A stretch of 20,040 bases of DNA from a virus. Lineage: Duplodnaviria; Heunggongvirae; Uroviricota; Caudoviricetes. The notes under the pieces were generated by a model. That model was not told where the DNA came from. It searched no databases and saw only the letters and a list, made by a program, of their open reading frames with translations. Made by a program: the position numbers and the translations under genes. The stretch lies in IMG/VR virus record IMGVR_UViG_2667527582_000006; one strand, written 5' to 3'. Of this stretch, positions 1 through 20,040 are shown piece by piece (positions within the stretch are counted from its first letter, which is position 1; every line of letters starts with the position of its first letter).

Positions 1-1
1 A

Positions 2-4112: not shown

Positions 4113-4204
4113 TTGTTTTAACCTCATGACAGATTTAAGGATGAACAAATCCCTGCCATTGCTGGCATATAAGAATGAAACCGGATATTTATTACGGAAC
4201 TGTT

Positions 4205-5367: not shown

Positions 5368-5396
5368 ACTGATTCCTCGCGGTGCTGTTTCGCTTA

Positions 5397-5525: not shown

Positions 5526-5526
5526 A

Positions 5527-5682
5527 TCACTCACCTGAGTTTCTTTCCAGCCAGCGACGGGCACCATTTTCGGTTTTAAACGTTTTGCTTTTGGTATACG
5601 TCATTGCGGTGAAGGTGCCGTCCTGGTTTGGAAACACGCCGTACACCAGAGATTCGTTGTTGCCAAGATCGATAGTATCCAT
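5527..5682 (-). CDS. ydfA: Small protein, YdfA-like (51 aa)
   Basis: Internal start MDTIDLGNNESLVYGVFPNQDG... with GAGG 6 nt upstream; first gene of the leftward operon; size matches. Confidence 0.55.
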   Translation of the reverse strand: MDTIDLGNNESLVYGVFPNQDGTFTAMTYTKSKTFKTENGARRWLERNSGE

Positions 5683-5889
5683 GCTGACCTCATTTCCCCT
5701 TAACGCCGGGGTAGCGGAACAAAAACCTGCTGCATAGTTATTAAAGTTGAACCCTGCCGTCATGTTCTTACGCCTCGGGCTGGCTACTTAACCCCTGACC
5801 ACTGCCTGGTAACTCGAAGTATTGCCCTGCATTCTGTAGGATGGGGTGAGGGAATGAATGAAGTTTAGAAAGACGAACTTTCCAGGTCA

Positions 5890-5909
5890 ATGTTTTTTTA
5901 TCAAAACAT
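5890..5909. promoter_or_regulatory. Putative left operator (OL-like): palindrome ATGTTTT-N6-AAAACAT
   Basis: Perfect 7-bp inverted arms, 6-bp spacer, upstream of the leftward ydfA operon; same motif recurs at the cI/cro intergenic region. Confidence 0.4.
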
Positions 5910-5974
5910 TTTAAGCAGGCAGCTGTTAAGCCATCACCACGATGGCATACAGTTAATCAAATAGATGAGGTTGG

Positions 5975-6613
5975 TTAAATATCTTGTTGAATTTTAAAGC
6001 ATACGCCCAATATGCAAGATAGATCATCCAGCATAATTGAAGGGTAGCGAGGATTCGTGGGGACTAAAAGAATATCCGGCCCTTCTATCTCCAGTTTACG
6101 AATGACAGGTGTTGTGGTCCCTTTGGGTAAGGCAAGGACAATATTTCCTGGTTGTACGGTTCGATCGGGATCAACAAAAACTGTTGAACCATTTGGGATG
6201 GAAACTCCCCCACCAGATGTTGACATACTGTCACTCTCTAGAACAACTGCAAAGGTATTGACCGGGATTTCTCCGACAAGCTGCACACAAGAGGTTATTG
6301 AGGAATTTTTCATATAATCACTCCAGCTTGCTGCCTGCTGAAGTGATAGTAGCGGAACCGTTTTTATCGGCGGTAAAGATAGATCAAGCGAATCACCTGT
6401 ATTTAACTCTCCTCCATTAAGAAGCCAATTTTCGTTTACTTTCAATATTTTTGCCAGTGAACTTATGTAACGCGAGGACGGCGCTCCTCCACCGTTCATC
6501 CATTGACTTACGGAGCCTTTTGATGCGCCAGTGCCATTGACAAGGTCTTTGCCTTTCAGGTTTAGCGCATGCATACGTTGGGTTATGCGTTCAGATATAG
6601 TTTGCTTGCTCAT
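5975..6613 (-). CDS. CI-like prophage repressor (N-terminal HTH, C-terminal S24/LexA-like autopeptidase)
   Basis: 212 aa; HTH region KDLVNGTGASKGSVSQWMNG; S24-like region with Ser in VVLESDSMS and Lys in PVIRKLE; divergent from cro-like gene. Confidence 0.85.
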   Translation of the reverse strand: MSKQTISERITQRMHALNLKGKDLVNGTGASKGSVSQWMNGGGAPSSRYISSLAKILKVNENWLLNGGELNTGDSLDLSLPPIKTVPLLSLQQAASWSDYMKNSSITSCVQLVGEIPVNTFAVVLESDSMSTSGGGVSIPNGSTVFVDPDRTVQPGNIVLALPKGTTTPVIRKLEIEGPDILLVPTNPRYPSIMLDDLSCILGVCFKIQQDI

Positions 6614-6676
6614 GTTTTGATTTTAAAACACAGATGGTTTTGTTTCTTGACTTTCTTTGGTTTTGATTATTAAACT
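6612..6676. promoter_or_regulatory. Putative OR-like operator/promoter region between cI and cro
   Basis: ATGTTTTgattttAAAACAC at 6612-6631 overlaps the cI start codon; two further GGTTTTG(A/T)TT half-site-like repeats at about 6637 and 6659. Confidence 0.45.
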
Positions 6677-6704
6677 TTTGACGTTCAGTTTTATGGAGCG
6701 ACTC

Positions 6705-6935
6705 ATGAAAAAATCAGAAGTATTAGGCTATTTTGGCGGAGTTGTTAAAACAGCCGCAGCTCTAGGAACGTCAAAAACCACAGTCAGCATGTGGGGGGAA
6801 GAGGTTCCGTGGAAATGGGCGTTGCTAATTCAGGCAGTCACTGCCGGGGCGCTCAAATATGAGTTACACATACCGACGGTTGTCATTCCCGGTTCTGATC
6901 ATAATCCGCCTTCTAACCAAGGGGGGGATTCATGA
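6705..6935 (+). CDS. Cro-like HTH regulator (76 aa)
   Basis: MKKSEVLGYFGGVVKTAAALGTSKTTVSMWGEEVP... resembles P22-type Cro; GGAG 6 nt upstream; divergent from the repressor. Confidence 0.7.
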   Translation: MKKSEVLGYFGGVVKTAAALGTSKTTVSMWGEEVPWKWALLIQAVTAGALKYELHIPTVVIPGSDHNPPSNQGGDS

Positions 6936-7357
6936 AAATCAAGCATGAACACATCCGCATGGCGATGAATGCCTGGGCGCATCCGGACGGCGAAAAAGTA
7001 CCGGCTGCGAAAATTACCAAAGCGTATTTCGAGCTGGGAATGACGTTCCCGGAACTGTATGACGACAGCCATCCGGAAGCCCTGGCTCGCAATACCCAGA
7101 AAATTTTCCGCTGGGTAGAGAAAGACACCCCTGATGCAGTTGAAAAAATTCAGGCGTTGTTACCAGCGATCGAAAAGGCAATGCCACCTTTGCTGGTGGC
7201 CAGAATGCGCAGCCACAGTTCAGCTTATTTTCGGGAGCTGGTGGAGACGCGGGAGCGACTGGTGAGAGACGCTGATGATTTTGTCGCAGTGGCAATCGCC
7301 GGTTTCAATCAGATGAACCGTGGTGGCCCGGCAGGAAATGCTGTGGCAGTACATTGA
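6932..7357 (+). CDS. CII-like / YdaT-like regulatory protein (141 aa)
   Basis: ATG overlaps the cro stop (ATGA); G-rich SD; position after cro matches CII/YdaT of Rac-type immunity regions. Confidence 0.5.
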   Translation: MKIKHEHIRMAMNAWAHPDGEKVPAAKITKAYFELGMTFPELYDDSHPEALARNTQKIFRWVEKDTPDAVEKIQALLPAIEKAMPPLLVARMRSHSSAYFRELVETRERLVRDADDFVAVAIAGFNQMNRGGPAGNAVAVH

Positions 7358-7428
7358 CTGACAATAGCCATATCGAATCGCTTCCGGCAACTCGTGAGTA
7401 AAAAGATTCGGTATCAGAAGAGGTGAGT

Positions 7429-8499
7429 ATGGCTAACGCCTGGCTCAGATTATGGCATGACATGCCAAATGACCCTAAGTGGCGAACAATTGCCAGGGTG
7501 TCAGGGCAGCCAATTGCAACAGTGATGGCAGTGTATATCCACCTCCTGGTGAGCGCGTCACGAAATGTCACGCGAGGTCACATTGATGTCACGACAGAAG
7601 ATTTGGCAAGTGCGCTCGACGTGACAGAAGAGGTAATTGATTCAATTTTGCAGACGATGCAGGGGCGGGTACTTGATGGTGATTTAATCACTGGATGGGA
7701 AAAACGCCAGGTGCTGAAAGAGGACAACGGCAATATTTCGCAAACCGCAAAATCTCCGGCAGAGCGCAAGAGGGCGCAGCGAGAGAGGGAAAGAAAGCGG
7801 GAACAAAATGGCGATTGTCACGGCGCGTCACGAAATGTCACGCACATGTCACGACGAGTCACGACAGATAAAGATACAGATAAAGATACAGATCAAGAAG
7901 ATCAAAACACTATGGTCCATGGCGTAAAAAACGCCACGAACCAGGCAGGGGATGTTCAGACCGTCAATCCTGGTCAGCCAGCAGGCACGACACCGGAAGC
8001 CGATTCAGCGTATGCGCTGAAAGCCGATTCGGGCGCTGTGCAGCAGGTGATGACCCCAAGGCCGGAGCAATCACACCAACTGCAGCAGCCTGAAGCCGAT
8101 TCCGCCATTCAGCGGGAAGCCGATCGGGTAGTCCCGGAAAACACCGGGCTGTCTGTGGGACGAGTGGATTATCCGGATGTGTTCGAACAGGTCTGGCGGG
8201 AGTACCCGTTGCGTGCCGGAGCAAACCCGAAGAAATCCGCTTTCAGTGCCTGGAAGGCCAGATTACGCGAGGGGGTGCCACCAGAGGCCATGCTGGATGG
8301 CGTGAGGCGTTACGCAAGATACTTGGCGGCTACCGGGAAAACGGGAACGGAATTTGTTCAGCGAGCGACGACGTTTTTTGGACCGGACCGGAATTTTGAG
8401 AACCCCTGGTTGCTCCCGGTAAGCGGCACGAACAACCAGCGTTGTGTGAATCATATTTCTGAACCGGATACCGAAATTCCACCGGGCTTCAGGGGGTAA
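7429..8499 (+). CDS. Replication initiator, lambda O-like (replisome organiser N-terminus), containing the origin iterons
   Basis: N-terminus MANAWLRLWHDMPNDPKWRTIARVSGQPIATVMAVYIHLL typical of the phage replisome-organiser N-terminal domain; GAGGTGAG SD; internal iteron arrays. Confidence 0.75.
   Translation: MANAWLRLWHDMPNDPKWRTIARVSGQPIATVMAVYIHLLVSASRNVTRGHIDVTTEDLASALDVTEEVIDSILQTMQGRVLDGDLITGWEKRQVLKEDNGNISQTAKSPAERKRAQRERERKREQNGDCHGASRNVTHMSRRVTTDKDTDKDTDQEDQNTMVHGVKNATNQAGDVQTVNPGQPAGTTPEADSAYALKADSGAVQQVMTPRPEQSHQLQQPEADSAIQREADRVVPENTGLSVGRVDYPDVFEQVWREYPLRAGANPKKSAFSAWKARLREGVPPEAMLDGVRRYARYLAATGKTGTEFVQRATTFFGPDRNFENPWLLPVSGTNNQRCVNHISEPDTEIPPGFRG
7556..7593 (+). repeat. Iteron cluster 1: four GTCAC(G/A) repeats at 10-11 bp spacing
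   Basis: Copies at about 7557, 7567, 7577 and 7588; the 18-mer CGTCACGAAATGTCACGC recurs identically at 7826-7843. Confidence 0.6.
7817..7888 (+). repeat. Iteron cluster 2 (five GTCACG repeats at 10-11 bp spacing) followed by GATAAAGATACA x2 tandem repeat; candidate ori
   Basis: Copies at about 7817, 7827, 7837, 7848 and 7858, then GATAAAGATACAGATAAAGATACA and an A-rich stretch, all inside the O-like ORF. Confidence 0.6.
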
Positions 8500-8539
8500 G
8501 TGTTGATTTCTGGTCATGAGGTAATTTTCAGGAGGGCTT

Positions 8540-8962
8540 GTGGCAAAAGTTTTTACACAAGAAGAGCGAGAAAAAATTAAAGGGCAGGTTGTTGAACTCG
8601 TACGCCAGAGTGGGCGTGAGACGTTACGGCAACTGGAAGTCAAGACAGGTGCGACAAGATATCTGATGAGCGTTCTCGCAAGAGAGCTGGTTGCCAGCGG
8701 CGATGTATACAACTCCGGCTACGGGTTATTCCCCTCTGAACAGGCGCGTAAGGACTGGCAAAACGCCCGCAAAAAACTCTCGAGGGCAAAGGTGAAGAAA
8801 CCTGCTGTGGTTGATCCGGACCTTATCTGGTCATCACCTGACGGAGAAATACGTCGCTACGACAGTCGCCTAAACATAATCTGTCGCGAGTGCCGGAAGA
8901 GTGAAGCTATGCAGCGTGTACTGGCTTTCTATCAGGGTAATTTTCAGGAGGCGGTACTGTGA
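8540..8962 (+). CDS. Hypothetical protein (140 aa), replication-module position
   Basis: GTG start with AGGAGG 4 nt upstream; basic, possibly DNA-binding; no recognised motif. Confidence 0.5.
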   Translation: MAKVFTQEEREKIKGQVVELVRQSGRETLRQLEVKTGATRYLMSVLARELVASGDVYNSGYGLFPSEQARKDWQNARKKLSRAKVKKPAVVDPDLIWSSPDGEIRRYDSRLNIICRECRKSEAMQRVLAFYQGNFQEAVL

Positions 8963-9019
8963 GTGAAATTAGCTATCAGGCTTCAATTACCGCTGGCATT
9001 CGCATCAAAGGAGAGGAGC

Positions 9020-9376
9020 ATGGAAATAAAACCAGAGGATGAGTTAAGCAATATCGTTTTATTTCCGGTAAAAGAGGATGACCCTCGTAATCAGGTTAAT
9101 TTTCTTTATGAGCCATCGGAAAGACCATATTGTCATCACGCCTCTGTCCGGGTTGACGAAAAAGAGCGTCAGGTCCGCTGTAAAATCTGCGGTGCAGTTG
9201 TGGAGCCATTTGACTGGATGCTCTCTGTGGCGAAAAGAGAAACCAGACTGGCAGATGATGTAAGGCTCTTGCGTCAGGAGGAGCGGGAAAGGCGAAAAAA
9301 TATAGAAAAGCTAATTCAGATTGAGCGTAACGCGAAAGCGCGGATACGCAGGGCGACAAAATCCAGAACTGAATAA
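9020..9376 (+). CDS. Hypothetical protein (118 aa) with Cys/His cluster and basic coiled-coil-like C-terminus
   Basis: ATG at 9020 with AGGAGAGGAG SD; CHHASVRVDEKERQVRCKICG possible zinc-binding; the track ORF begins at an upstream GTG (8963). Confidence 0.5.
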   Translation: MEIKPEDELSNIVLFPVKEDDPRNQVNFLYEPSERPYCHHASVRVDEKERQVRCKICGAVVEPFDWMLSVAKRETRLADDVRLLRQEERERRKNIEKLIQIERNAKARIRRATKSRTE

Positions 9377-9469
9377 TTAAATTTAGCTCTGTTAAAAATT
9401 TAATCCTTAACCGGAGGGATTTCTGCACCCTCAGAACATCAGGAGGCCGCCCGAAAGGGCGGTAGTTAA

Positions 9470-9652
9470 ATGCGAAAGTTTAAAATAATTATTGAAACGG
9501 GAATAGCCGGTGGAGATTTCGAGGATGAATTCGAAGTGGATGATGATGCGACGCCTGATGAAATACATGACGAAGCAAAAGATATTTTCTTTAACTACTG
9601 CAATTACTCATATCACGAAATAAAAGACGAAGAGGAAGAACAAAATGGCTGA
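9470..9652 (+). CDS. Small highly acidic protein (60 aa)
   Basis: MRKFKIIIETGIAGGDFEDEFEVDDDATPDEIHDE...; SD AGGAGG separated from the ATG by a GNRA-loop hairpin. Confidence 0.45.
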   Translation: MRKFKIIIETGIAGGDFEDEFEVDDDATPDEIHDEAKDIFFNYCNYSYHEIKDEEEEQNG

Positions 9653-9821
9653 TTTTGGTTCAACTAAATACAACGTCAGTTTTGAAGAATGGCATGAACT
9701 GTTAATGGACTATGCAGAGTTACGTGGTGGCAGTGCTGCTGATGCTGAAGCATGGCGTGATGATTATGAAGCAGGAAAAACTCCGGTCGAAGCATATTGT
9801 GATGAGTGGGGCGATGAATGA
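9645..9821 (+). CDS. Small acidic protein (58 aa), not in the ORF track
   Basis: Manual translation MADFGSTKYNVSFEEWHELLMDYAELRGGSAADAEAWRDDYEAGKTPVEAYCDEWGDE; GAGGAAGAA SD; start overlaps the upstream stop and its stop overlaps the next ATG (ATGA). Confidence 0.4.
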   Translation: MADFGSTKYNVSFEEWHELLMDYAELRGGSAADAEAWRDDYEAGKTPVEAYCDEWGDE

Positions 9822-10134
9822 GCGAGGTTAATTATCAGGAAGGGCATGAAACGGCGGGGCAAGCAAAAACAGTGGCATGGCGATATCGCTACGTGAAAAA
9901 AAAGGCGTTACGGACTTTCAGGGGAAGTAGTGGTCTGGTGACTGGAAATATGTACCGAAAAAAGAGGATTGTAACGACAGGCCGAACTATGAAATTCAGG
10001 CCTTATTCACTGCCCCGCCAGTCCCGGTTACATCAGAAGAACTGGTTAAAGCTGTGCACTTTTATGAACAACTAAAACGCGAAAATCCACCAGCATCCGG
10101 AAACCTGATTACAGATTCCCAGATAAGGCAATGA
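9818..10134 (+). pseudogene. Hypothetical gene with apparent frame disruption: ATG frame 9818-10075 and a more protein-like -1 frame from 9931 to 10134
   Basis: Annotated frame after the A8 tract (9896-9903) is K/R-rich and junk-like; the -1 frame encodes ...DWKYVPKKEDCNDRPNYEIQALFTAPPVPVTSEELVKAVHFYEQLKRENPPASGNLITDSQIRQ but has no start codon. Confidence 0.3.
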
Positions 10135-10304
10135 GCTACCTGGCGCAGAACGGGCTGATAAGTATGGGGAATGTTTTACGATGAATATTTAGACTAAAGA
10201 GTTTGTAACGCTATGTAAGTGATTTTTTCTGGTTTAGATATTTATATGTCCGGCCAAATTGAGGTGTGTTTAAATGTAATTGCACATTGATTGTAGGAGG
10301 AATA

Positions 10305-10484
10305 ATGAAAAACGCATTGCAGTTTTTGTTTGTTGCGTTCTGGTTGTTCGTATCATGTATGCCCATCATCTTCACAGCAAGGTATATGGAAAAAGTTGAT
10401 GTTTTGATATTAATATTTGGATATATAAATGCCCTTTTTTTAGGGGTGTTCATGGCGGTCATGTGCATTGAATACTGGCGGTAA
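10305..10484 (+). CDS. Small hydrophobic membrane protein (59 aa, two predicted TM segments) in an AT-rich moron
   Basis: MKNALQFLFVAFWLFVSCMPIIF...LILIFGYINALFLGVFMAVMCIEYWR; strong AGGAGG SD; AT-rich surroundings. Confidence 0.5.
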   Translation: MKNALQFLFVAFWLFVSCMPIIFTARYMEKVDVLILIFGYINALFLGVFMAVMCIEYWR

Positions 10485-10629
10485 ATACAGCGAACGCCAT
10501 TGGTTTAGTTGGATATTTACTGTGCCGGACAAAAACGGTTTGCGGGGAAATCTTAGTTAAGTAGAATGACTGCGGGTGCTTGAGGCTATCTGTCTCAGGC
10601 ATGAACACCAAAAGGCAGATAGAGAAAAG

Positions 10630-10693
10630 CCCCAGTTAACATTACGCGTCCTGCAAGACGCTTAACATTAATCTGAGGCCATATCTATGCGAC
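10630..10693 (-). ncRNA. Putative Sok-like antisense RNA of the hok locus (extent approximate)
   Basis: Minus-strand promoter-like TTGACC (10729-10724), 18-nt spacer, TAATCT (10705-10700); the transcript would be antisense to the leader-ORF start region, as in hok/sok. Confidence 0.3.
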
Positions 10694-10746
10694 ACATAGA
10701 GATTAGCCTCTTACGGACCGAAAGGTCAAGGAGAAGCAGGCTATGA
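10687..10746 (+). CDS. Putative mok-like leader ORF (19 codons), translationally coupled to hok
   Basis: ATG at 10687; stop TGA overlaps the hok ATG (cuAUGA). Confidence 0.3.
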   Translation: MRHIEISLLRTERSRRSRL

Positions 10747-10898
10747 AGCAGCAAAAGGCGATGTTAATCGCCCTGATCGTCATCTGTTTAACCGTCATAG
10801 TGACGGCACTGGTAACGAGGAAAGACCTCTGCGAGGTACGAATCCGAACCGGCCAGACGGAGGTCGCTGTCTTCACAGCTTACGAACCTGAGGAGTAA
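10743..10898 (+). CDS. hokD: Hok-family type I toxin (HokD/RelF-like, 51 aa)
   Basis: MKQQKAMLIALIVICLTVIVTALVTRKDLCEVRIRTGQTEVAVFTAYEPEE: single TM helix and conserved Hok periplasmic tail with Cys. Confidence 0.85.
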   Translation: MKQQKAMLIALIVICLTVIVTALVTRKDLCEVRIRTGQTEVAVFTAYEPEE

Positions 10899-10966
10899 GA
10901 GACCTGGCGGGGGAGAAATCCCTCGCCACCTCTGATGTGTCAGGCATCCTCAACGCACCCGCACGT

Positions 10967-10993
10967 AACCCGCTTCGGCGGGTTTTGTTTTTT
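10967..10993 (+). terminator. Rho-independent terminator of the hok transcript
   Basis: CCCGC-TTCG-GCGGG hairpin followed by TTTTGTTTTTT. Confidence 0.7.
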
Positions 10994-11065
10994 CCTGGCA
11001 TTCTGGTTTACAATTCGCACGCCAGCCTGAACAACTGGCACCTGCTGCGCCAGCAGAGACAACCG

Positions 11066-11344
11066 ATGGCGCACGATACCAAATTACACAATTCTAATGA
11101 TTCTGCCGTCTTTGCCAGTAGGTGCGGACGGCGTTTTCACGCATTCAAATCAGACTGGTTCCAGCATCCTCCATGCACTGAAGAGCAGGCGGAATGGATA
11201 ATTCAGTGTTACCGCAGGCGCGGATACGAGGTTAAGAAAGCTCTTAGCCTCGACTACCGTCACTGGATAATCTCAGTCAGACTCCCTTACTCCGAACGCC
11301 CACCGCGTTCATCCCGCACATACCAGCAACGGATCTGGAGGTAA
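11066..11344 (+). CDS. Hypothetical small protein (rem-like position between hok and ydfU)
   Basis: ORF in frame with track ORF 10937..11344; the first ATG downstream of the hok terminator is at 11066; stop abuts the ydfU-like start. Confidence 0.45.
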   Translation: MAHDTKLHNSNDSAVFASRCGRRFHAFKSDWFQHPPCTEEQAEWIIQCYRRRGYEVKKALSLDYRHWIISVRLPYSERPPRSSRTYQQRIWR

Positions 11345-11345
11345 C

Positions 11346-12395
11346 GTGCGGGTATTACTTCGACCTGTTCTGGTACCGGAACTCGGGGTGGTGATCGTTA
11401 AGCCGGGCCGTGAATCCATGCCGGTATTCCACAATACCCGGGTACTGGTGGAGCCGGAACCGAAAAGCATGCGTAATCTGCCGTCCGGGGTCGTTCCTGC
11501 CGTTCGCCAGCCGCTGGTGGAAGACAAAACATTGCTGCCGTTTTTCAGTAACGCACGGGTGATTCGTGCTGCTGGTGGTGCTGGTGCATTGTCTGACTGG
11601 CTGTTGCGCCATATTAAATCCTGCCAGTGGCCACACGGCGATTATCACCACAGTGAAACCGTCATTCACCGTTATGGTACCGGCGCAATGGTGTTGTGCT
11701 GGCACTGCGACAACCAGCTGCGTGACCAGACATCCGAATCACTCGAGCAACTTGCTCATCAAAACCTGTCAGCATGGATGATTGACGTCATCGGTCACGC
11801 AATAAGCGGTACGCAGGAGCGTGAATTATCTCTGGCTGAATTATCCTGGTGGGCGGTCCGAAATCAGGTGGCGGATGCGCTACCTGAAGCGGTATTACGT
11901 CGCTCGCTGGGATTACCAGCGGAAAAAATCCGCTCAATGTACCGCGAAAGCGACATCGTACCGGGAGAGCAGACCGCCACCAGCATATTGAAACAGCGCA
12001 CAAAAAATCTTGCACTGTTGCCTCACGCCCACCAGGAACAACACCCACTACAGGAAAGGACGGTGGTAAGCATCACCGTTGATCCTGAGTCTCCGGAATC
12101 TTTCATGAAGCTACCTAAACGTCGCCGCTGGGTTAAGGAGAAATACACTCGCTGGGTGAAGACACAGCCGTGTGCTTGCTGCGGTATGCCAGCCGACGAT
12201 CCGCATCATCTGATTGGTCACGGGCAGGGCGGAATGGGAACCAAAGCACATGATCTTTTTGTGTTGCCTTTATGCAGAAAGCATCACGACGAACTGCATA
12301 CGGATACCGTGGCATTTGAAGAGAAGTATGGCTCCCAACTGGAGCTGATTTTTCGATTTATCGATCACGCGCTGGCAATTGGTGTGCTGGCCTAA
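11346..12395 (+). CDS. ydfU: DUF968-family prophage protein (YdfU-like, 349 aa) with C-terminal Cys/His-rich HNH-like segment
   Basis: GTG start with GGAGG SD; C-terminal CACCGMPADDPHHLIGHGQGGMGTKAHDLFVLPLCRKHHDELH; size and position match remembered ydfU. Confidence 0.7.
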   Translation: MRVLLRPVLVPELGVVIVKPGRESMPVFHNTRVLVEPEPKSMRNLPSGVVPAVRQPLVEDKTLLPFFSNARVIRAAGGAGALSDWLLRHIKSCQWPHGDYHHSETVIHRYGTGAMVLCWHCDNQLRDQTSESLEQLAHQNLSAWMIDVIGHAISGTQERELSLAELSWWAVRNQVADALPEAVLRRSLGLPAEKIRSMYRESDIVPGEQTATSILKQRTKNLALLPHAHQEQHPLQERTVVSITVDPESPESFMKLPKRRRWVKEKYTRWVKTQPCACCGMPADDPHHLIGHGQGGMGTKAHDLFVLPLCRKHHDELHTDTVAFEEKYGSQLELIFRFIDHALAIGVLA

Positions 12396-12412
12396 TTTTG
12401 TGGAGTAAGTTG

Positions 12413-12459
12413 ATGCGTGATATTCAGATGGTTCTTGAGCGTTGGGGAGCGTGGGCGGC
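12413..12459 (+). CDS. Antitermination protein Q-like, N-terminal fragment only (truncated by the assembly gap)
   Basis: MRDIQMVLERWGAWA... with GGAG SD; reading frame runs into the N tract. Confidence 0.5.
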
Positions 12460-12469
12460 NNNNNNNNNN
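12460..12469. other. Assembly gap (10 N)
   Basis: Run of n characters in the sequence. Confidence 0.97.
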
Positions 12470-12481
12470 AATTCATATCAA

Positions 12482-12506
12482 CGGACCTCCACGGAGGTCC
12501 GTTTTT
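12482..12506 (+). terminator. Rho-independent terminator-like hairpin just right of the gap
   Basis: CGGACCTCC / GGAGGTCCG perfect inverted repeat followed by TTTTT. Confidence 0.6.
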
Positions 12507-12665
12507 GCATTCTAAGCCCGCCAAAACCAACATTCCTACAATCCCTTAACTCCACCCAACTCAATCAACTTCAACCCGCATCAAGTCCCTTGCGAGGGTA
12601 CAACTGAGGGTATAGTCTGATTCGATAAAATTTATACCCCTTTTTACTATCAGGAGATACCGCCA

Positions 12666-13928
12666 ATGGCGCTCACTGACGCTAAAATCCGTGCCGCTAA
12701 ACCGGATGAAAAACCTTATAAACTTGCCGACAGCGGCAACATGTTCTTGCTCGTTCACCCTAACGGCTCTCGCTACTGGCGGCTCCGCTATCGGTTTCTG
12801 GGCAAAGAGAAAACGCTCGCTCTGGGGGTCTATCCTGAAGTCTCGTTATCAGAAGCAAGGGAAAAACGCGATACGGCGAGAAAGCTGATAGCTGAGGGAA
12901 CTGACCCATGCGAACAGAAAAGGATCAAAAAGTCGGTACCCGAAACAGCTCAGACATTTGAAGGCATCGCAAGACAGTGGCATAAGAGCAACAAAAAATG
13001 GTCAGCCTCACACAATGAGAGGATACTGAAAAGCCTCGAAACTCATGTTTTCCCCTTTATTGGTTCACGTGACATTACCACCCTCAGGACTCCCGATTTA
13101 CTTGTTCCCGTTAAAGCAGCCGAAGCAAAGGAGATATATGAAATCGCAGCGCGCCTTCAGCAGCGTATCACTGCAATCATGCGCTATGCTGCCCAGTCAG
13201 GCATTATCACCTATAACCCTGCCTTGGATATGGCTGGCGCGTTAACCACAGTGAAACGCCAGCACCGCCCTGCCCTCGCCTTAAATCGCATTTCAGAGCT
13301 TCTTGAACGACTGGATGCCTACAGAGGACAACCTCTCACCCGGCAGGCAACTAAACTCACCCTGCTTATCTTCATCCGTTCCAGCGAACTACGCTTTGCC
13401 AGGTGGTCTGAGATCGACTTCAAGAAAGCCATGTGGACCATTCCTCCTGAGCGGAAACCTATTGAAGGGGTCAAGTATTCCCATCGTGGCTCAAAAATGC
13501 GAACAGAGCATCTTGTGCCACTATCTACTCAGGCGGTGAATATACTGAAGCAGATCCACACTATCAGCGGAGAACATGAACTGATTTTCACCGGCGATCA
13601 CAATCCATGGAAACCCATGAGTGAGAACACTGTAAATAACGCACTGCGTCTGATGGGCTATGATACAAAGGTCGATGTCTGTGGTCACGGCTTCCGGGCA
13701 ATGGCCTGTAGTTCGTTGATTGAGTCAGGTCTTTGGTCCAGAGATGCGGTAGAACGGCAGATGAGCCATATGGAACGCAATTCGGTGAGGGCGGCGTATA
13801 TTCATAAAGCGGAACATCTGGATGAGCGCAAGCTGATGTTGCAGTGGTGGGCTGATTTTCTGGATGCCAATCGGGAAAGGGGAATTACGCCGTTTGACTA
13901 TGCGAAGATCAACCGGGGTAATATGTAG
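12666..13928 (+). CDS. P4-type (CP4-like) tyrosine integrase
   Basis: 420 aa; N-terminal MALTDAKIRAAKPDEKPYKLADSGNMFLLVHPNGSRYWRLRYRF arm-binding signature; C-terminal HGFRAM...RAAY catalytic motifs; AGGAGA SD. Confidence 0.85.
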   Translation: MALTDAKIRAAKPDEKPYKLADSGNMFLLVHPNGSRYWRLRYRFLGKEKTLALGVYPEVSLSEAREKRDTARKLIAEGTDPCEQKRIKKSVPETAQTFEGIARQWHKSNKKWSASHNERILKSLETHVFPFIGSRDITTLRTPDLLVPVKAAEAKEIYEIAARLQQRITAIMRYAAQSGIITYNPALDMAGALTTVKRQHRPALALNRISELLERLDAYRGQPLTRQATKLTLLIFIRSSELRFARWSEIDFKKAMWTIPPERKPIEGVKYSHRGSKMRTEHLVPLSTQAVNILKQIHTISGEHELIFTGDHNPWKPMSENTVNNALRLMGYDTKVDVCGHGFRAMACSSLIESGLWSRDAVERQMSHMERNSVRAAYIHKAEHLDERKLMLQWWADFLDANRERGITPFDYAKINRGNM

Positions 13929-13946
13929 CATATGTGTTTAAATATA

Positions 13947-13988
13947 TTAGCTCAGATTTGATCTGACACAGCTCTGGCACAGAGCTAA
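13947..13988. repeat. Nested palindromic element downstream of the integrase
   Basis: TTAGCTC...GAGCTAA outer arms enclosing TCAGAT-ttg-ATCTGA and AGCTCTG-gca-CAGAGCT. Confidence 0.4.
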
Positions 13989-14095
13989 ACCTAATCTGCA
14001 GGCAGCTCTGTTCCATAGGCGGAAGTTTATCTTTGTAGCCTAGATGCCAGTTAGGAAGAAAATAGAGACAGGAAAGATGATGACTAAATCAGTCT

Positions 14096-14118
14096 CCCAC
14101 CCGCACTGTGCGGGTGGG
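14096..14118. repeat. GC-rich hairpin (9-bp stem CCCACCCGC / GCGGGTGGG), possible terminator in the convergent intergenic region
   Basis: Perfect inverted repeat with 5-nt loop; lies between the convergent integrase and MTase genes. Confidence 0.35.
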
Positions 14119-14458
14119 ATATGTCTTTCCGAGAGAATACCGGCGGCAGCGAGCATCGTTAATTTTAGCTACAAAAGCTGTCCGGAGATGGCGGGTCAAG
14201 ATCAGTCGGAAGATCTCTAAAAGTGGATGGGCCGTTTTGCTGGGATTCTTAGATTGGCAAAAAAGTGGTGAAGCCATCAGATAGGAAGTGGATGGCGCAG
14301 TATTCAGTCTAACACTGAGGAATATTGTGATAATGAAAAGGCTACATATGTAGTGATGTGATTTACTCCCATAGCAAACGCAAACTGTGGCAGTATTACA
14401 TTGGCTGCTTCAGGAAAGGGGGCATCACATCACGACATTTTCTTCCACTGCAGGGTCA

Positions 14459-15775
14459 TTAGCCTGCTGTTCGCTCCAGACCCTGGTTCTTACCAGCCAG
14501 TATTTCGGCTTTTTTCATAGTTTCGACCAACTGTTCCGAGACAGCACGGATGACATTCATGCAGACAGAGTTGCCAAATTGCTTGTAGATCTGGCCCTGT
14601 GAAACAGCATCGACGATGTAGTCGTCAGGGAATCCCTGTAGACGTGCACATTCGCGCGGAGTTAGCTTGCGTGGGTTCCTACCCAAATGTGACTGGTCAA
14701 TCAGGATTTCGGAGCCGTCCTTGTAATAACGTGCACTGATGGTATTAGTGTATTCGCTGTCCTTGTTGAAAAGAGAATAGCCGAAACCGTTACCTTTCTT
14801 TTCGTGTTCCAGTTTCCGTTTCTGGTGGCCTATCCACAGTCTATCCGAGATGGTATATCTGTCTTGTGATAGAGGCAGACGATCGAGGTCTTCCAGAATG
14901 TCACCAACACGGGTCGGAGTCATAGGAGGTACCGGCCATCTGAATACACTGTCGAAATCCACGCCCCTATAATAGTCACGGTCAAAACCAACGATGAAAA
15001 TACGTTCACGGTTCTGGGGGGCACCGAAGTCACCTGCACGCAGTACACGGTAATCAACCCAGTAATTGAGTTTTTCGGACAGAGCATTGCGGGCATCCTC
15101 ACTAATCGGGATATCGTCCGGAACGGAATGGGTTCCATTGCCCCGCAGGATATCGAGAATGGTTTTCAGGGTACGACCCTTATCATGTCCCTGCAGTTGC
15201 TTGACATTTTCCAACATGAATGCCTTTGGACGCTTGGCTGTCATTATCCGCTGAATTTCGAAGAACATGGTTCCACGGGTATCGCTGAAACCTTTTTTCA
15301 AACCGGCCTGTGAAAAAGCCTGGCATGGAAATCCGCCAAGCAGTACATCGTGATCAGGAATGTCGGATGCCGGAATTCTAGTGATGTCACCTTGGGGCAT
15401 TTCGCCGAAATTCGTTAGATAGGTCTTCTGGGAGAACTTGTCCCATTCGGATGAGAATACACAGTGCCCTCCCTGCTGCTGATAAGGAAGACGAATACCT
15501 CCGATACCAGCAAACAGATCGATGAAGGTGAAATTGCATTCATTTTCAGGCTTCTGGCGGAAAGGTGCGTTTTCCAGATATTCAGTCATCTTCTTTTCCA
15601 CATCGAGAATGGCCTGCCATTTGGCGGAAGACGGTTCATGTTCCTCTTCTTCCCATCCTCGGACTGTACGTTCTCCGGTGGCACCGAGTCCGAGAAGATT
15701 GGCAAATTCGGTGCGACCTATGCCTAATTTTTTTCTCATATTTTTGATATATTGGAATTTATTCTTACTGTCCAT
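14459..15775 (-). CDS. DNA (cytosine-5)-methyltransferase, Dcm/EcoRII/SsoII family, with N-terminal HTH regulatory extension
   Basis: Motif I FIDLFAGIGG, motif IV GGFPCQAFS, ENV, QNRERIFIVG, TISARYYKDGSEILID, TPRECARLQGFPDDY; N-terminal GIGRTEFANLLGLGATGERTVRGWEEEE HTH-like segment. Confidence 0.9.
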   Translation of the reverse strand: MDSKNKFQYIKNMRKKLGIGRTEFANLLGLGATGERTVRGWEEEEHEPSSAKWQAILDVEKKMTEYLENAPFRQKPENECNFTFIDLFAGIGGIRLPYQQQGGHCVFSSEWDKFSQKTYLTNFGEMPQGDITRIPASDIPDHDVLLGGFPCQAFSQAGLKKGFSDTRGTMFFEIQRIMTAKRPKAFMLENVKQLQGHDKGRTLKTILDILRGNGTHSVPDDIPISEDARNALSEKLNYWVDYRVLRAGDFGAPQNRERIFIVGFDRDYYRGVDFDSVFRWPVPPMTPTRVGDILEDLDRLPLSQDRYTISDRLWIGHQKRKLEHEKKGNGFGYSLFNKDSEYTNTISARYYKDGSEILIDQSHLGRNPRKLTPRECARLQGFPDDYIVDAVSQGQIYKQFGNSVCMNVIRAVSEQLVETMKKAEILAGKNQGLERTAG

Positions 15776-15887
15776 CCCATGCTCACCTTATCCGGTTTTA
15801 TTCCCGGCGATAGTATCACTGTACGGATGATCAATCAATGAGGGGGTCTCATGTCTATCGACATTTCTGGGCATAGTCCGAATCTTT

Positions 15888-17162
15888 TCAGACTGTAAAA
15901 ATTTCGCGGGTCAGTTCTACCAGCTTTTCTCCTGTTGAATACAGCCGAAGTAGTTCTAGGGGATCCTGGTAATGGCAATGAATCGGCGGATATTCGGACA
16001 GACAGTCAGCTTCTGTAACCAGAACCTTTCCCCTTTCCGCAACATGGACAGCCCTGAGTGGCTTTTCTGTTCCAGGAAAAATGAAATGGTTTGTGATGTG
16101 GGTACCGACCGGCACTAGGTAAGAAAGCGCCTTCTGGTAGAAAAACTGTTTTACCAGATCCGGCCAACCAGGAGCACTATCCGGTGTCTTCGCATCATAG
16201 TATTTGGCATCTATGATCGCGACGTGCGTTTTTTCTGCATTGTGGAGAACCGTATCCGTTCTCTGGCTCTTGTTGGCAACGGGAACAAACCTGTCACTGC
16301 CGGCCCGATACACGGGAATAGGCAATTTATTGTTAACTCGGTATTTACCCACCAAGCATTCATCCAGCATGGCTTCCCACAGACTGTGAAACTTCCTGAC
16401 ACCGATAAGAACCCCGCCATTCCGCATTCCTCTCCCTGTTTCAAGATACATGATCAGTCTCCGCAAAAGGAAAATATCCCTTTCGGAATAGCTGAACTGC
16501 AGTTCTCTTCTTAGGTGTACAACCCATGAGAAAACATTTCCCTCAGGACGCGGAACATTCTGCAGTCGTTCAGGAGTGCCCTGACTGCCTGTCCAGAGCA
16601 TTCCGTATACCGGATAGAGCTCCCTCATTACAGAGGCATGAATCTTTGCTGTCTCGCTATCGGTGAGGTAGCGCGAACGTGTGGTTACAGGATCGATATA
16701 TACAGGCCCAGATGGGCTAGTATAGGCAGTCCCTCGGGCAATTGTCTCCGGCCATACAACTTTTCCGGAGTTGGTTGTATCGACTCTAATCCGGCGGACA
16801 TAGAGACCATTCGTCTGATAGTCGTCAATCAGTGCAGTTGCCAACGACAGGGATTCACCACCGATAAGTCCGGTTCCTGCATCCCCATCAAAAACACCGG
16901 TGTCTCTATCTCGGTAGAATTTCAGGAGTGAGCGGAGCAGATAATGTGCTGAAAGAGCCTGCGATTCACGAGAAGAACTGTTATTTCGTGGCAGAAATAC
17001 AGCCAGACCTCCACTGAAAGACATGACTCCACAGAAATGGATTTTCTGCATGTCGGGGGCCAGCAGCCCCCTGTTTCTCAGCTCATCGAGCACGGTCGCA
17101 GGAATACTGCGATCGGTGACAGGTGTCCTGTCTGAAAGATACAGAATATCAGCTGGCAACAT
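15888..17162 (-). CDS. McrC-like PD-(D/E)xK nuclease subunit
   Basis: 424 aa; C-terminal HVAIIDAKYY matching the (D/E)xK catalytic core; start overlaps the upstream AAA+ gene by 14 nt. Confidence 0.7.
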   Translation of the reverse strand: MLPADILYLSDRTPVTDRSIPATVLDELRNRGLLAPDMQKIHFCGVMSFSGGLAVFLPRNNSSSRESQALSAHYLLRSLLKFYRDRDTGVFDGDAGTGLIGGESLSLATALIDDYQTNGLYVRRIRVDTTNSGKVVWPETIARGTAYTSPSGPVYIDPVTTRSRYLTDSETAKIHASVMRELYPVYGMLWTGSQGTPERLQNVPRPEGNVFSWVVHLRRELQFSYSERDIFLLRRLIMYLETGRGMRNGGVLIGVRKFHSLWEAMLDECLVGKYRVNNKLPIPVYRAGSDRFVPVANKSQRTDTVLHNAEKTHVAIIDAKYYDAKTPDSAPGWPDLVKQFFYQKALSYLVPVGTHITNHFIFPGTEKPLRAVHVAERGKVLVTEADCLSEYPPIHCHYQDPLELLRLYSTGEKLVELTREIFTV

Positions 17163-19089
17163 CTTGCGGATCCCTGTTCATGTCAACAGGAGTGCCCACC
17201 CCTTCAAGTCTGTTCTCTACGGCAGTGGAGAAAACAGCCATGTCATTGCGAAATGCTGCAGATAGGTTGCCGAACGTTCTGAAGGTAGACGCAAATATTT
17301 TCTGGTGTCCGACATGTCTCAGCACATCATCCCACAAATAGATGAACAGTTTTCCGCCAAGGGCAGCTTTCGCTGCTTCCCTATTTTCCAGTTCTTTAGA
17401 ATCTAGGAAAAACGGGCCGATCAGACGATCCTCTGCTATTTCACATTCGACAAGGGTGTCATTAATAATTTGAGCAAAATCGCGCCAGAGTACCGAATAT
17501 TTTCCTGAATTGGTGGTGAAAACGATTTCGGTTTGTGGGATCTCCGGTTTTGATAAATCGATTGGTAGATATTCGAAATTCCAGCGCCGTTTGAATGCAG
17601 TATCCAGCGGCATAACTGCCTGATCACTGCTGTTCATGGTAGCCAGTAGAGACATATTGGACGGGATCCGTAAGCTATCGACAGGAGTACATCCCATAGT
17701 ACCTAGTTCCGTATTTATATACTCGATCATATCCGGATCAGTGGCATTGATGCTGTAGGTACTCGTTCCATCAGGCTCCCTGTCTAGAAGCTGGAAAAGC
17801 TCGCCGAAGACAGCTGCAGCAGAAGCACGGTTGATTTCTTCGATAATGAGACAGACCTTTCTGTCTGGACGAGCAATGGCCAGTATGAGTGCGCAGGTAA
17901 AGGGGCCTGGTCTGAAACTGTAGGTTATGCTGCTTTCTCCCTGTTCATTCTTTTCCATTTTAGGCTTCAGGGCACCGACAAAATCGTTATGCTGAGTATC
18001 AGGATGGAAAACTGTGACAATCTTTTCTGCACCGTCACTCATTTCACCATGGACCCTGTAGCTTTTTCCCGTACCGGGTGCCCCATAGAAGATTCTGTTC
18101 GTTCCACCGGTCACTCTAGGTCCGGATACGGAGGCTCTGGTCGATGACTCGAAAAAGAACTTGCCCTCTCTGTTCCGGATACTCATCCCCAGCCATAAAC
18201 CGGAAACCAGAACCGATATTTTTTCAAGTGAATCGGGAGTATCCAAGAGACCCTTTCTGATGAAAATATATTTCTCCAGCGGAACAGAAAAATGGACGGG
18301 ATTCTGGACATACAGCGCATTGCCGGGTTCCCTGGATGGGCGGAGAAGAAATGCCCTGTCTATATCATTCCATGAAACAAATTCGGCATCGGGGTCAGTC
18401 CCCAGTAAAGGCTCAAACTGACCGGACCAGCCAATGGTTGTCATTATTCTGAACAGCAGTTCATCCCCATCAGGAACACTGAACATATAAGGAAGACTGG
18501 GCATATATCTCCTTTGAAGGTAATCATATGTTTCTTGAGAACGCACCAGATCAAGAATCAGGGTACCGAGTGTTTCCGAGCTTACATTCGGGACCGGCAA
18601 TGATGCCAGCAAGACCGATTTGACAAAATCATCGGATTGCCTATAACTCTTTTTCCCAGTTTTTGAGCTCGTGTTTATTAGATTTTTTGCCTCAAGTCTT
18701 GTTCTGGGATCTTTGAAAGCCCAGAAAAAGTTACTGCGGCTGTAGATGTCCAGCGAAACGAGCGCCTGCTCGTTTGACGTTCCGCTTTCGATCATTGCTT
18801 CGAATTCTGCCGGAAACATATTTTTTTTGATTTCTTCGAATACAGAGATGTAGTTGTCCAGTAGTCTTACAAATGGCCCAATCTTTAGCATATACATCAG
18901 ATACTGGCATGGTATATAACAGTGATACCCGCTTCCAGTTTTCATCCGTGCTGTATGGTCCAGCAATGTCAGTCCGGTTGTTGATAGAACCGTTCTTGTT
19001 TCATCATCGAATCCGATCTCATCGAATTGCCATGCCGATTCAGGTTCATTTTTGAACCAGTTCATCACCATATCCAGTTCTGAAAGCAT
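17149..19089 (-). CDS. McrB-like AAA+ (AAA_5) NTPase with about 330-aa uncharacterised N-terminal domain
   Basis: Walker A GAPGTGKS; Walker B/McrB signature LIIEEINRASAAAVFGELFQLLDR; NxxD-like MNSSD; N-terminal 330 aa without recognisable motif. Confidence 0.75.
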   Translation of the reverse strand: MLSELDMVMNWFKNEPESAWQFDEIGFDDETRTVLSTTGLTLLDHTARMKTGSGYHCYIPCQYLMYMLKIGPFVRLLDNYISVFEEIKKNMFPAEFEAMIESGTSNEQALVSLDIYSRSNFFWAFKDPRTRLEAKNLINTSSKTGKKSYRQSDDFVKSVLLASLPVPNVSSETLGTLILDLVRSQETYDYLQRRYMPSLPYMFSVPDGDELLFRIMTTIGWSGQFEPLLGTDPDAEFVSWNDIDRAFLLRPSREPGNALYVQNPVHFSVPLEKYIFIRKGLLDTPDSLEKISVLVSGLWLGMSIRNREGKFFFESSTRASVSGPRVTGGTNRIFYGAPGTGKSYRVHGEMSDGAEKIVTVFHPDTQHNDFVGALKPKMEKNEQGESSITYSFRPGPFTCALILAIARPDRKVCLIIEEINRASAAAVFGELFQLLDREPDGTSTYSINATDPDMIEYINTELGTMGCTPVDSLRIPSNMSLLATMNSSDQAVMPLDTAFKRRWNFEYLPIDLSKPEIPQTEIVFTTNSGKYSVLWRDFAQIINDTLVECEIAEDRLIGPFFLDSKELENREAAKAALGGKLFIYLWDDVLRHVGHQKIFASTFRTFGNLSAAFRNDMAVFSTAVENRLEGVGTPVDMNRDPQDVAS

Positions 19090-19116
19090 ACTTGTCCCGT
19101 CCTTGCATGAGAAAAA

Positions 19117-20040
19117 TTAGTCATACTTGATCCAGAGATTTCTGGATATTGTCTGTCGCATGTTTTCAATAAATTTCTTGTTCTGGTCCGAAAACTGAGA
19201 GTTTTCATACTGCCCCATAAAAAACAGCAATTCGGCCAGTGCACAGCCCTGGTCTTTCGCCTGATTTTTCATCACGGGATGTTCAGTATTGATGGTAATG
19301 AAATGATCGTCCCCGTAACCAGGTTCCCACAATGAACCGTCGGCTGTTTTACCGAAACGAATATCGATGTCGTCAGGAGCAGTCATCATTACCCTAAATC
19401 TAGGCAGATTGCCGCTTTTTCCAGAAAACAGGAGCCTAAATTCGAGTAGGGCATTGAATATGATAGCCAAGGCATCACTGAAACCTGAACGGTAAATATT
19501 ATAACGGTCGGCAATGATATTACCGAACATGTCAGTATTGTCCTGCCCGATGGTGTCACATCCCTGAATGTTGTTCACCAGATCCTTTACCGGACTCGGC
19601 ATGAATAGACGGGCATACTTTTTCCCTTGGTGAGCAAGCGATTTTGCGATCCTATCACCGGAAAACCTGAACTCTGAAAGGCCCAGAAGCTCCGCGATTT
19701 CATATATCATACGGACAATTCTGCAATTTTCAGGCAGATGTTCATCCACCCACGTGGACAGTGCTGGTATTTCCGCTTTAAGCTTGTCGGTTGGAAGATT
19801 TGTCACTTCCAGCCCGAAGGTACTCTCGAATGACTCTTTTTCGCTGAAAACGGCAGCGCTTGCTGCTACCTGATAAACAAAATCTGCAATTATCAGATCT
19901 GATTCATCGAATATTCGATTGAACAGGTCAATCGGCAACGGAATCCTGTTCTGCCAGAAAATCAGTCCATCTACCCTGTAACTGTGGTTTTTGTCGTAAA
20001 GGTAACGTTTGAAATCGGCCAGATCGTATTCATAATTCAT
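19117..20040 (-). CDS. Hypothetical protein (307 aa), first gene of the McrBC-like/MTase cluster
   Basis: ORF begins with ATG exactly at the window edge and ends 27 nt upstream of the McrB-like start; no motif recognised. Confidence 0.5.
   Translation of the reverse strand: MNYEYDLADFKRYLYDKNHSYRVDGLIFWQNRIPLPIDLFNRIFDESDLIIADFVYQVAASAAVFSEKESFESTFGLEVTNLPTDKLKAEIPALSTWVDEHLPENCRIVRMIYEIAELLGLSEFRFSGDRIAKSLAHQGKKYARLFMPSPVKDLVNNIQGCDTIGQDNTDMFGNIIADRYNIYRSGFSDALAIIFNALLEFRLLFSGKSGNLPRFRVMMTAPDDIDIRFGKTADGSLWEPGYGDDHFITINTEHPVMKNQAKDQGCALAELLFFMGQYENSQFSDQNKKFIENMRQTISRNLWIKYD

Follow-up and report, generated by a model that had tools for sequence, protein, structure and literature searches.

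X307, a conserved companion of an SNF2 helicase and a predicted MORC-type ATPase in a defence island of Escherichia coli

The window analysed in this study, a 20,040-nucleotide stretch of DNA from the viral record IMGVR_UViG_2667527582_000006, carries a prophage and a defence island. Positions 1 to 12400 are a Rac-like prophage with 98% identity to E. coli chromosomes, indicating that the host is E. coli. This flanking prophage is common; the island gave no match in a megablast search of 5,426 complete E. coli genomes and is rare in E. coli. The features of the island are listed in Table 1. The gene at the end of the window encodes a 307-aa protein, which was named X307 here. An initial annotation had described X307 as an uncharacterised protein that leads an McrBC-like operon, is tightly linked to the following NTPase gene, and may act as a specificity or sensor subunit of an McrBC-like enzyme. 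The coordinates given for the ORF were exact, and its ATG occupies the final three positions of the window.

Table 1. Features of the X307 gene and its surroundings in the window
Feature	Position	Strand	Description
X307 gene	19117..20040	(-)	307 codons, complete; third of six operon genes
X307 N-terminal domain, residues 1-205	19426..20040	(-)	small beta-hairpin region first, remainder all-alpha (AlphaFold)
Motif H-x-G-K-K-Y-x-R, residues 137-144	19609..19632	(-)	from the diverse X307 alignment
Motif block N-x-D-M-F-G-N-x-x-A-D ... Y-R-S-G-F-S-D-A ... F-N-x-L-L-x-F, residues 168-201	19438..19539	(-)	
X307 variable linker, residues 206-225	19366..19425	(-)	low confidence in both models (pLDDT 40-56); variable in length and sequence
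X307 C-terminal domain, residues 226-307	19120..19365	(-)	three-strand beta-meander and two long helices (AlphaFold)
Spacer, X307 stop to McrB-like ATG	19090..19116	(-)	27 nt, from sequence
McrB-like AAA+ NTPase, 646 aa	17149..19089	(-)	PF07728 AAA_5 at 2.8e-10
LlaJI-family (McrC-like) restriction endonuclease, 424 aa	15888..17162	(-)	PF09563 RE_LlaJI at 6.2e-32
C5 cytosine DNA methyltransferase, 438 aa	14459..15775	(-)	PF00145 at 1e-94; TIGR00675 dcm at 8.7e-91
P4-type tyrosine integrase flanking the defence island	12666..13928	(+)	Arm-DNA-bind_3, Phage_int_M, Phage_integrase (Pfam, equivalent L004 gene)

The first two genes of the operon are located beyond the window edge. The exact X307 protein is encoded on six Escherichia-type contigs (L001-L006), and contig L004 contains the exact reverse complement of window positions 10000-20040. 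On L004, an in-frame stop codon was found 10 codons 5' of the X307 ATG, indicating that X307 is not part of a larger gene continuing past the window, a possibility that the initial annotation had raised. In all six contigs, a gene for a 616-aa SNF2 helicase and then a gene for a 532-aa HATPase_c_3 protein lie 5' of X307 on the same strand. The suspicion that the system extends past the edge was therefore correct, whereas the placement of X307 as the first gene has to be revised: with two co-oriented genes preceding it, X307 is the third of six genes and not the leader. The order of the island is SNF2 helicase, predicted MORC-type GHKL ATPase, X307, McrB-like NTPase, LlaJI-like nuclease, and C5-methyltransferase, all co-oriented; on L004 these six genes lie within positions 6250-15700. 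Approximately 300 bp of non-coding DNA lies 5' of the SNF2 gene, and a promoter scan was uninformative on transcription starts (14 sites vs 13.6 expected).

The neighbouring genes were assigned by domain searches. The 616-aa protein matched SNF2-rel_dom (4.5e-50) and Helicase_C (7.5e-19) in Pfam, and the 532-aa protein matched PF13589 HATPase_c_3 at 4.3e-30. The TGA of the ATPase gene and the ATG of X307 overlap as ATGA, which couples the two genes translationally. Downstream of X307, the 646-aa NTPase showed further matches to NCBIfam McrB (1.2e-7), PADLOC REase_II (1.7e-49), and PDB McrB (3.5e-8), and its N-terminal ~320 aa received no family assignment in Pfam. This protein is the R1-like subunit of a nuclease module that is exchangeable between loci, as described below. 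The LlaJI-family nuclease gene overlaps the NTPase gene by 14 nt. In the B. subtilis BsuMI system, McrB-like and LlaJI-like proteins are accompanied by a third restriction subunit, YdiR, which may be a lead for comparison. The methyltransferase, which presumably marks self DNA, had a weak N-terminal HTH_3 match (E 0.019; 15.4 bits, under the curated cutoff of 23).

The database searches showed that X307 is a member of a compact protein family. A search of a large protein database returned 224 homologues, almost all of which were 307-323 aa in length (307-316 aa among the 120 listed), and HMMER, run exhaustively over 1.84 billion cluster representatives, yielded 52 representatives of mostly 305-332 aa. 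One further match, the 1698-aa protein P0163 with 24 repeats, was discarded as a repeat artefact. The dN/dS value of X307 against its Rheinheimera orthologue was 0.087, and the neighbouring genes had similar values. X307 is a real, complete, and strongly conserved gene under purifying selection. All its relatives are named "hypothetical protein" in the databases.

No known family could be assigned to X307, in agreement with the initial annotation, which had recognised no catalytic or DNA-binding motif. Pfam and PADLOC each returned 0 families at E values up to 1, and NCBIfam returned noise only (best E 0.21; 11 bits vs a cutoff of 500). A PDB sequence-profile search with the whole X307 family found nothing, and no PADLOC model matched the distant family members in loci L025 and L062. 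In the fold search, the matches to the zincin-like structures 2ejq, 3e11, and 4qhf and to the HtpG C-terminal domain were too weak for use. No known reader or DNA-binding domain was detected by Pfam, NCBIfam, PADLOC, or fold. Homology to a housekeeping or unrelated prophage protein, which had also been considered, did not appear, and there was no X307 match in the phage collection.

The domain organisation of X307 was derived from two AlphaFold models, with pLDDT values of 81.6 and, after a more diverse alignment was used, 90.3. A predicted N-terminal domain, found in the X307 family only, is joined by a variable linker to a predicted C-terminal domain. The diverse alignment, which includes members with identities as low as 23% to the window protein, revealed two conserved regions in the N-terminal domain. 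In the first motif, G139, Y142, and R144 do not vary at all, and conservation of H137 and K141 reaches at least 90%. In the second block, which includes D-M-F-G-N-x-x-A-D (residues 170-178) and Y-R-S-G-F-S-D-A (residues 183-190), D170, D178, Y183, R184, G186, D189, and F195 likewise never vary. In the C-terminal domain, the positions with full or nearly full conservation are W-E-P (238-240), H-P (254-255), E279, and E-x-x-R-x-x-x-S-R (292-300). X307 is acidic, with a pI of about 5-6 in most members, a property more in keeping with a protein-binding subunit than with a general DNA binder.

The companions of X307 were analysed in 85 X307 loci, comprising 27 from species-representative genomes, 56 from metagenomes, 1 from IMG/VR, and 1 from a plasmid. 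The ORFs of these loci were classed by phmmer against the operon proteins, and the counts take the loci with enough flank. The GHKL ATPase gene lies directly 5' of X307 in 64/64 loci, and an SNF2 helicase gene is upstream in 56/56 loci. A Dcm-type methyltransferase was found nearby in 34/35 loci with large flanks, and a McrB-like gene was directly downstream in 31/59 loci. Among the 53 loci with both flanks, 29 were of the McrB/LlaJI type, 21 were of the HNH type, and 3 had neither nuclease module. The X307 proteins of the McrB/LlaJI-type loci are the closest to that of the window (44-100% identity), and the named genomes are proteobacterial. The HNH-type loci encode distant X307 proteins, and the named genomes are Bacteroidota plus one alphaproteobacterium; their HNH gene, with a product of ~255 aa, is placed after the ATPase gene and before X307 (Pfam HNH, E 1.5e-7 to 3.4e-5). 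A profile comparison showed no similarity between the N-terminus of the HNH protein and that of the McrB-like protein, which would have suggested a common docking domain.

In the three remaining loci (L028, L054, and L062), SNF2, GHKL, and X307 genes are present without an HNH gene or a directly coupled McrB/LlaJI pair. L062 keeps a Dcm gene plus a Vsr-like ORF, the latter called by eye from its translation. L028 is without Dcm as well and could be what is left of a decayed locus. In L054, a McrB/LlaJI/Dcm block is still nearby, and the genes NsnABC are embedded in the cluster.

To rank the partners of X307, pairwise divergence was correlated between X307 and each companion, with shared phylogeny uncorrected. 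The correlation was highest for SNF2 (r = 0.97) and GHKL (0.97), followed by Dcm (0.91), McrB-like (0.82), and LlaJI-like (0.66) proteins. This ranking agrees with the presence/absence pattern, and X307 therefore belongs to the SNF2/ATPase/Dcm core, with a swappable adjacent nuclease. X307 is an obligate companion of the SNF2/MORC-type pair, and the nuclease module is exchangeable, consisting of McrB-like and LlaJI-like proteins in proteobacteria and a single HNH protein in Bacteroidota and others. These results leave little room for the view that X307 takes no part in the defence mechanism, being instead a passenger, a regulator, or an embedded gene. Other defence genes do embed in such clusters, as NsnABC does in L054, but the strict co-occurrence of X307 with the ATPase and SNF2 genes across Proteobacteria, Bacteroidota, and metagenomes, its start codon overlapping the ATPase stop codon, its low dN/dS, and a domain that it has in common with the ATPase (see below) make such a role scarcely credible.

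The same counts bear on the proposal of the initial annotation that X307 leads the operon and serves the McrBC-like (LlaJI-like) enzyme as a specificity or sensor subunit. The tight link to the NTPase gene that it had noted is real, with the X307 stop codon 27 nt before the NTPase ATG, and a McrB-like gene directly follows X307 in the proteobacterial loci. However, X307 is the third gene rather than the first, its constant partners are SNF2 and the MORC-type ATPase, and the McrB/LlaJI pair is missing in 24/53 loci, 21 of which have the HNH nuclease instead. Conversely, locus L008 has a Dcm-McrB-like-LlaJI-like cassette that adjoins the cluster and lacks X307. Co-divergence with the McrB-like and LlaJI-like proteins is also the weakest among the partners.

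The comparison with LlaJI itself pointed in the same direction. LlaJI has two methyltransferases (M1 and M2), a McrB-like R1, and a McrC-like R2, and R1/R2 form a motor-nuclease pair that cuts unmodified DNA (PMC12707154; PMC1459862). The three downstream genes of the window resemble it, with an AAA_5/McrB-like NTPase, a PF09563 nuclease, and a C5 methyltransferase. In contrast, the LlaJI system is without SNF2, a GHKL ATPase, and X307, and the window has one methyltransferase rather than the two of LlaJI. Only M1, M2, R1, and R2 are described for LlaJI in these sources (PMC12707154; PMC1459862), and X307 has no similarity to R1, R2, or the methyltransferase. X307 was therefore rejected as a LlaJI component, and a role as a subunit of the McrBC-like enzyme is very unlikely.

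A broader role in recognition was also considered, in which X307 would sense unmethylated sites or another foreign-DNA signature for the whole system and license the MORC/SNF2 motor. Some component would have to discriminate Dcm-marked from unmarked DNA, given the near-constant presence of Dcm, and every other core protein already has a role assigned to it, leaving X307 as a candidate. The properties of the protein fit this role poorly. X307 is acidic and has no known DNA-binding fold, and clades with methyltransferases just 44-54% identical to that of the window have the same invariant motifs in X307. A variable DNA-specificity subunit would not be expected to combine an acidic pI with motifs that are invariant across phyla. 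Moreover, DNA recognition by LlaJI is performed by the N-terminal domain of its McrB-like R1 subunit (PMC12707154), and the R1-like protein of the window has the unassigned N-terminal region of ~320 aa. We regard a sensor function of X307 as improbable.

The ATPase encoded directly upstream of X307 was then characterised. Its only PDB sequence matches were human MORC2, MORC3, and MORC4. Furthermore, its consensus "GFYIYREGRLI" fits, when matched by eye, the MORC-specific S5 motif GhXhhpXXRhl defined in PMC2292703, and G290, R295, E296, R298, and I300 are invariant in the ATPase alignment. These results indicate that the 532-aa GHKL protein is a MORC-type ATPase, as judged from its sequence. 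In 2008, bacterial ATPases of the MORC type were predicted to have given rise to the MORC chromatin regulators of eukaryotes and to act in restriction systems (PMC2292703). In that study, Iyer, Abhiman and Aravind predicted three classes of prokaryotic MORC restriction-modification operons, of which class 2 combines MORC and a SWI2/SNF2 helicase with HNH or EcoRII-like nucleases, cytosine methylases, and Vsr (PMC2292703).

The operon described here resembles class 2, as a GHKL+S5 ATPase with the MORC motif stands beside a SWI2/SNF2 helicase, and the adjacent genes include a nuclease and a methylase. In related loci, HNH, EcoRII-like, cytosine methylase, and Vsr-like genes are nearby: the HNH-type locus L060 has a full EcoRII beside Dcm (Pfam), and the Vsr genes in L026, L020, and L062 were recognised by eye from translations only. 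The HNH-type X307 loci fit class 2 (PMC2292703), whereas in the window version the HNH protein is replaced by the McrB-like/LlaJI-like pair. The operon class is thus already known from the 2008 comparative-genomics prediction (PMC2292703). No description of the X307 subunit or of the McrB/LlaJI-coupled operon form was found in the searchable literature, which contains very few papers on bacterial MORCs and, as far as we found, none testing this operon type. Neither a McrBC census nor a 2026 E. coli domain-centric screen makes mention of the present operon architecture.

Other defence systems with related components were compared with the island. Hma (Helicase-Methylase-ATPase), as defined in PADLOC, brings together the three proteins of its name and frequently harbours further defence genes within its locus (bioRxiv 10.1101/2024.01.29.577857). 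The combination of helicase, methylase, and ATPase is similar here, as is the nesting of defence genes in L054. However, the SNF2 protein matched HmaA only weakly and partially (1.4e-12, in the helicase C-terminal lobe) vs 2.3e-124 for ZorD, the GHKL protein had no Hma match, X307 had no PADLOC match, and no Hma model was found among the 25 listed of the 63 PADLOC matches of the methyltransferase. For Mza, MzaB was matched by the ATPase only, and the X307, McrB-like, LlaJI-like, and SNF2 proteins matched no Mza model. Hma, Mza, DISARM, Dpd, and Zorya were ruled out as the identity of the system, with only generic SNF2/GHKL domains matching in PADLOC. TgvAB, from a V. cholerae VPI-2 paper, and VcSduA, a paraMORC3/Shedu protein from a WASA paper, are different systems.

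Profile-versus-profile comparison revealed a relationship between X307 and its cognate ATPase. X307 residues ~230-305 align with residues ~437-520 of the ATPase, which form the ATPase's own C-terminal domain. The hhalign probability was 98.3% (E 2.6e-14), with local hhalign runs giving 98.0-98.6%, whereas 19 control profile comparisons among or against other operon proteins were all at or below 1.5% probability. Of 1791 ORFs searched with an HMM made solely from X307 C-termini, 77 were matched at E<1e-3 (best 5e-15), every one of them a GHKL ORF. When X307 and the ATPase were aligned jointly, six residues (W, P, H, E, R, and S) were constant throughout the two families and the two clades, giving the common pattern W-x-P, H, E, R-x-x-x-S. 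These results, which are new, indicate that the last ~75 residues of X307 share homology with the cognate MORC-type ATPase's C-terminal domain, on the evidence of the sequence profiles.

The ATPase C-terminus is the only detectable homology of X307. ATPase residues 13-360 match PADLOC MzaB at 2.2e-42, and this match stops before the domain in common with X307, indicating that the C-terminal module is not a general MutL-like feature. A PDB sequence-profile search with the shared domain found nothing, and a large protein search with the 82-aa domain as a query returned only 7 fragments. Counting against the docking role proposed below, the invariant H, E, R, and S of the shared domain may denote a site of ligand binding or catalysis instead of an interface.

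In MutL, Hsp90, and MORC, the part of the protein that follows the ATPase keeps the dimer together or serves as a docking site for partners, and in eukaryotic MutL-alpha, two paralogues pair via homologous C-terminal domains. MutL/MutL-alpha and Hsp90 are similar to the present ATPase in having an N-terminal GHKL ATPase and a separate C-terminal module, a likeness that is used here as an analogy. Because such GHKL C-terminal regions hold dimers or dock partners and X307 carries the same module, we infer that X307 would join the MORC-type ATPase via the common C-terminal domain, either pairing with the domain of the ATPase or taking the same docking site. Pairing or competing with the ATPase C-terminal domain is the simplest reading, as X307 has the same module and is encoded immediately downstream with an overlapping start codon. 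With moderate confidence, we propose that X307 is an accessory, ATPase-less subunit that docks on the MORC/SNF2 motor through the shared C-terminal domain. Its conserved N-terminal domain could regulate this motor or link it to the nuclease module of the locus, of whichever type. In a model of the system based on PMC2292703, the methyltransferase would mark host DNA, unmarked DNA would be engaged, the MORC-type clamp and SNF2 translocase would connect recognition to cleavage, and the nuclease module would cut.

Two further observations run counter to an adaptor role. The N-terminal domain of X307 contains many invariant D, H, K, R, and Y residues, which look more like an active site than an adaptor surface, and three loci have no separate nuclease. 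Both are also what would be expected if X307 were the conserved effector enzyme of the core system, a nuclease or a DNA-modifying or nucleotide-processing enzyme with a new fold, to which the HNH and McrB/LlaJI modules are add-ons. The candidate residues, invariant or near-invariant and clustered in short motifs, would be H137, K141, Y142, R144, D170, D178, Y183, R184, and D189, and L028, L062, and L054 retain SNF2-GHKL-X307 with neither type of coupled nuclease. However, no nuclease or enzyme family was matched by sequence or fold, a dedicated nuclease is present in 50/53 of the both-flank loci, and X307 is acidic. Two of the three exceptional loci are also equivocal, since L028 without Dcm may be a remnant and L054 has the McrB/LlaJI/Dcm block nearby. 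An effector function is therefore rather unlikely, although it has more in its favour than a sensor function.

A more far-reaching form of the accessory-subunit proposal, which we put forward only tentatively and consider possible rather than probable, is that X307 founds a new family with a new fold, an ATPase-less partner that pairs with the bacterial MORC-type ATPase by means of a duplicated C-terminal domain. If this were true, prokaryotic MORC restriction machines would be hetero-oligomeric MORC/partner/SNF2 motors that take different nuclease cartridges (HNH or McrB/LlaJI), and catalysis or nucleotide binding of a new kind might take place at the invariant site of the X307 N-terminal domain.

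In this analysis, SNF2, the MORC-type ATPase, X307, and Dcm stand out as a minimal conserved core distinct from the interchangeable nuclease modules, and the C-terminal domain common to the ATPase and its putative partner supplies a specific hypothesis. The work provides a testable lead into the build of bacterial MORC-type restriction machines rather than a radical surprise, and as the island is found in E. coli, the question of bacterial MORC restriction is directly testable by genetics. Because no Pfam, NCBIfam, or PADLOC model exists for the X307 family, annotation tools most likely label the island as a plain type II restriction-modification system and miss half of it. The peptide of residues 168-201 was specific enough to pull the X307 family from genome and metagenome collections.

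The genomic setting of the island that carries the X307 gene, which encodes the 307-aa protein of the defence operon, was examined on both sides (coordinates are collected in the table). One side is formed by a P4-type integrase gene adjoining a Rac-like prophage that is 98% identical to E. coli chromosomes. At the far side, in the overlapping locus L004, a tRNA-Leu(CAA) gene was found together with IS elements, and in L002, another locus with the exact X307, the same island adjoins icd. The 5.6-kb island had no match among 5,426 complete E. coli genomes.

Coordinates of features in the window and in loci encoding X307 or its relatives
Sequence	Position (strand)	Feature
Window	1-12400	Rac-like prophage
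Window	12666-13928 (+)	P4-type integrase
Window	14459-15775 (-)	C5 methyltransferase
L004	3520-3604	tRNA-Leu(CAA) gene
L005	14222-16534	IS66 element
L008 (Xenorhabdus)	1158-5377	X307-less Dcm/McrB-like/LlaJI-like cassette
L025	4866-5414	~182-aa ORF; equivalent position in L028, L029, L030, L062
L028	6163-10939	minimal variant
L062	4228-10796	minimal variant
L054 (metagenome)	8964-12205	NsnA/NsnB/NsnC cassette
L060	11632-14536	EcoRII endonuclease adjoining Dcm gene
L060	2-2490	canonical McrBC pair

Many copies of the X307-bearing system were damaged. An IS66 element separates the LlaJI-like gene from the Dcm gene in L005, the SNF2 gene is split in four loci (L008, L013, L030, and L072), the X307 gene is split in L032, and the copy on the Vibrio vulnificus plasmid pFORC54 (L034) is fragmented, suggesting that the system is often inactivated. 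The Xenorhabdus locus also carries a second, shorter cassette directly upstream of its SNF2-GHKL-X307-McrB-like cluster, the latter being frameshifted. Furthermore, SNF2-GHKL-X307 was found without an HNH or McrB/LlaJI gene in L028 and L062. No Dcm gene was found within 10 kb in L028, and L062 retains Dcm and a Vsr-like ORF, so called from its translation alone. Such minimal loci are either what is left after decay of the system or a version of it that lacks a nuclease.

Two weak N-terminal matches to helix-turn-helix (HTH) domains were obtained for the window C5 methyltransferase, one to HTH_3 (E 0.019, under the Pfam cutoff) and one to an MqsA-family HTH (4.9e-4, under the family cutoff); if true, this HTH would resemble those through which certain methyltransferase genes are autoregulated. 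In Sphingobacteriia-type loci, a conserved ORF of ~182 aa lies directly upstream of the SNF2 gene and overlaps it. Its weak matches were to Sigma70_r2 (3.9e-4) and DUF433, and it could be a dedicated regulator.

Other defence genes were present within or beside X307 loci. In L060, a full-length EcoRII endonuclease (EcoRII-N, 9.8e-38; EcoRII-C, 6.8e-68) adjoins the Dcm gene alongside the SNF2-GHKL-HNH-X307 cluster, with the McrBC pair lying upstream; the methyltransferases of X307-bearing systems may be of an EcoRII/Dcm-like type. In L054, a complete Nsn cassette (PADLOC E 4.6e-114, 2e-98, and 1.4e-60) is flanked by X307 on one side and by an inverted McrB-like/LlaJI-like/Dcm block on the other, a nesting of one defence system in another.

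The only fusion seen in the X307 family was the C-terminal extension of P0143 (471 aa), consisting of repeated YxGEW...GxG units that, on reading of the sequence, look like MORN repeats.
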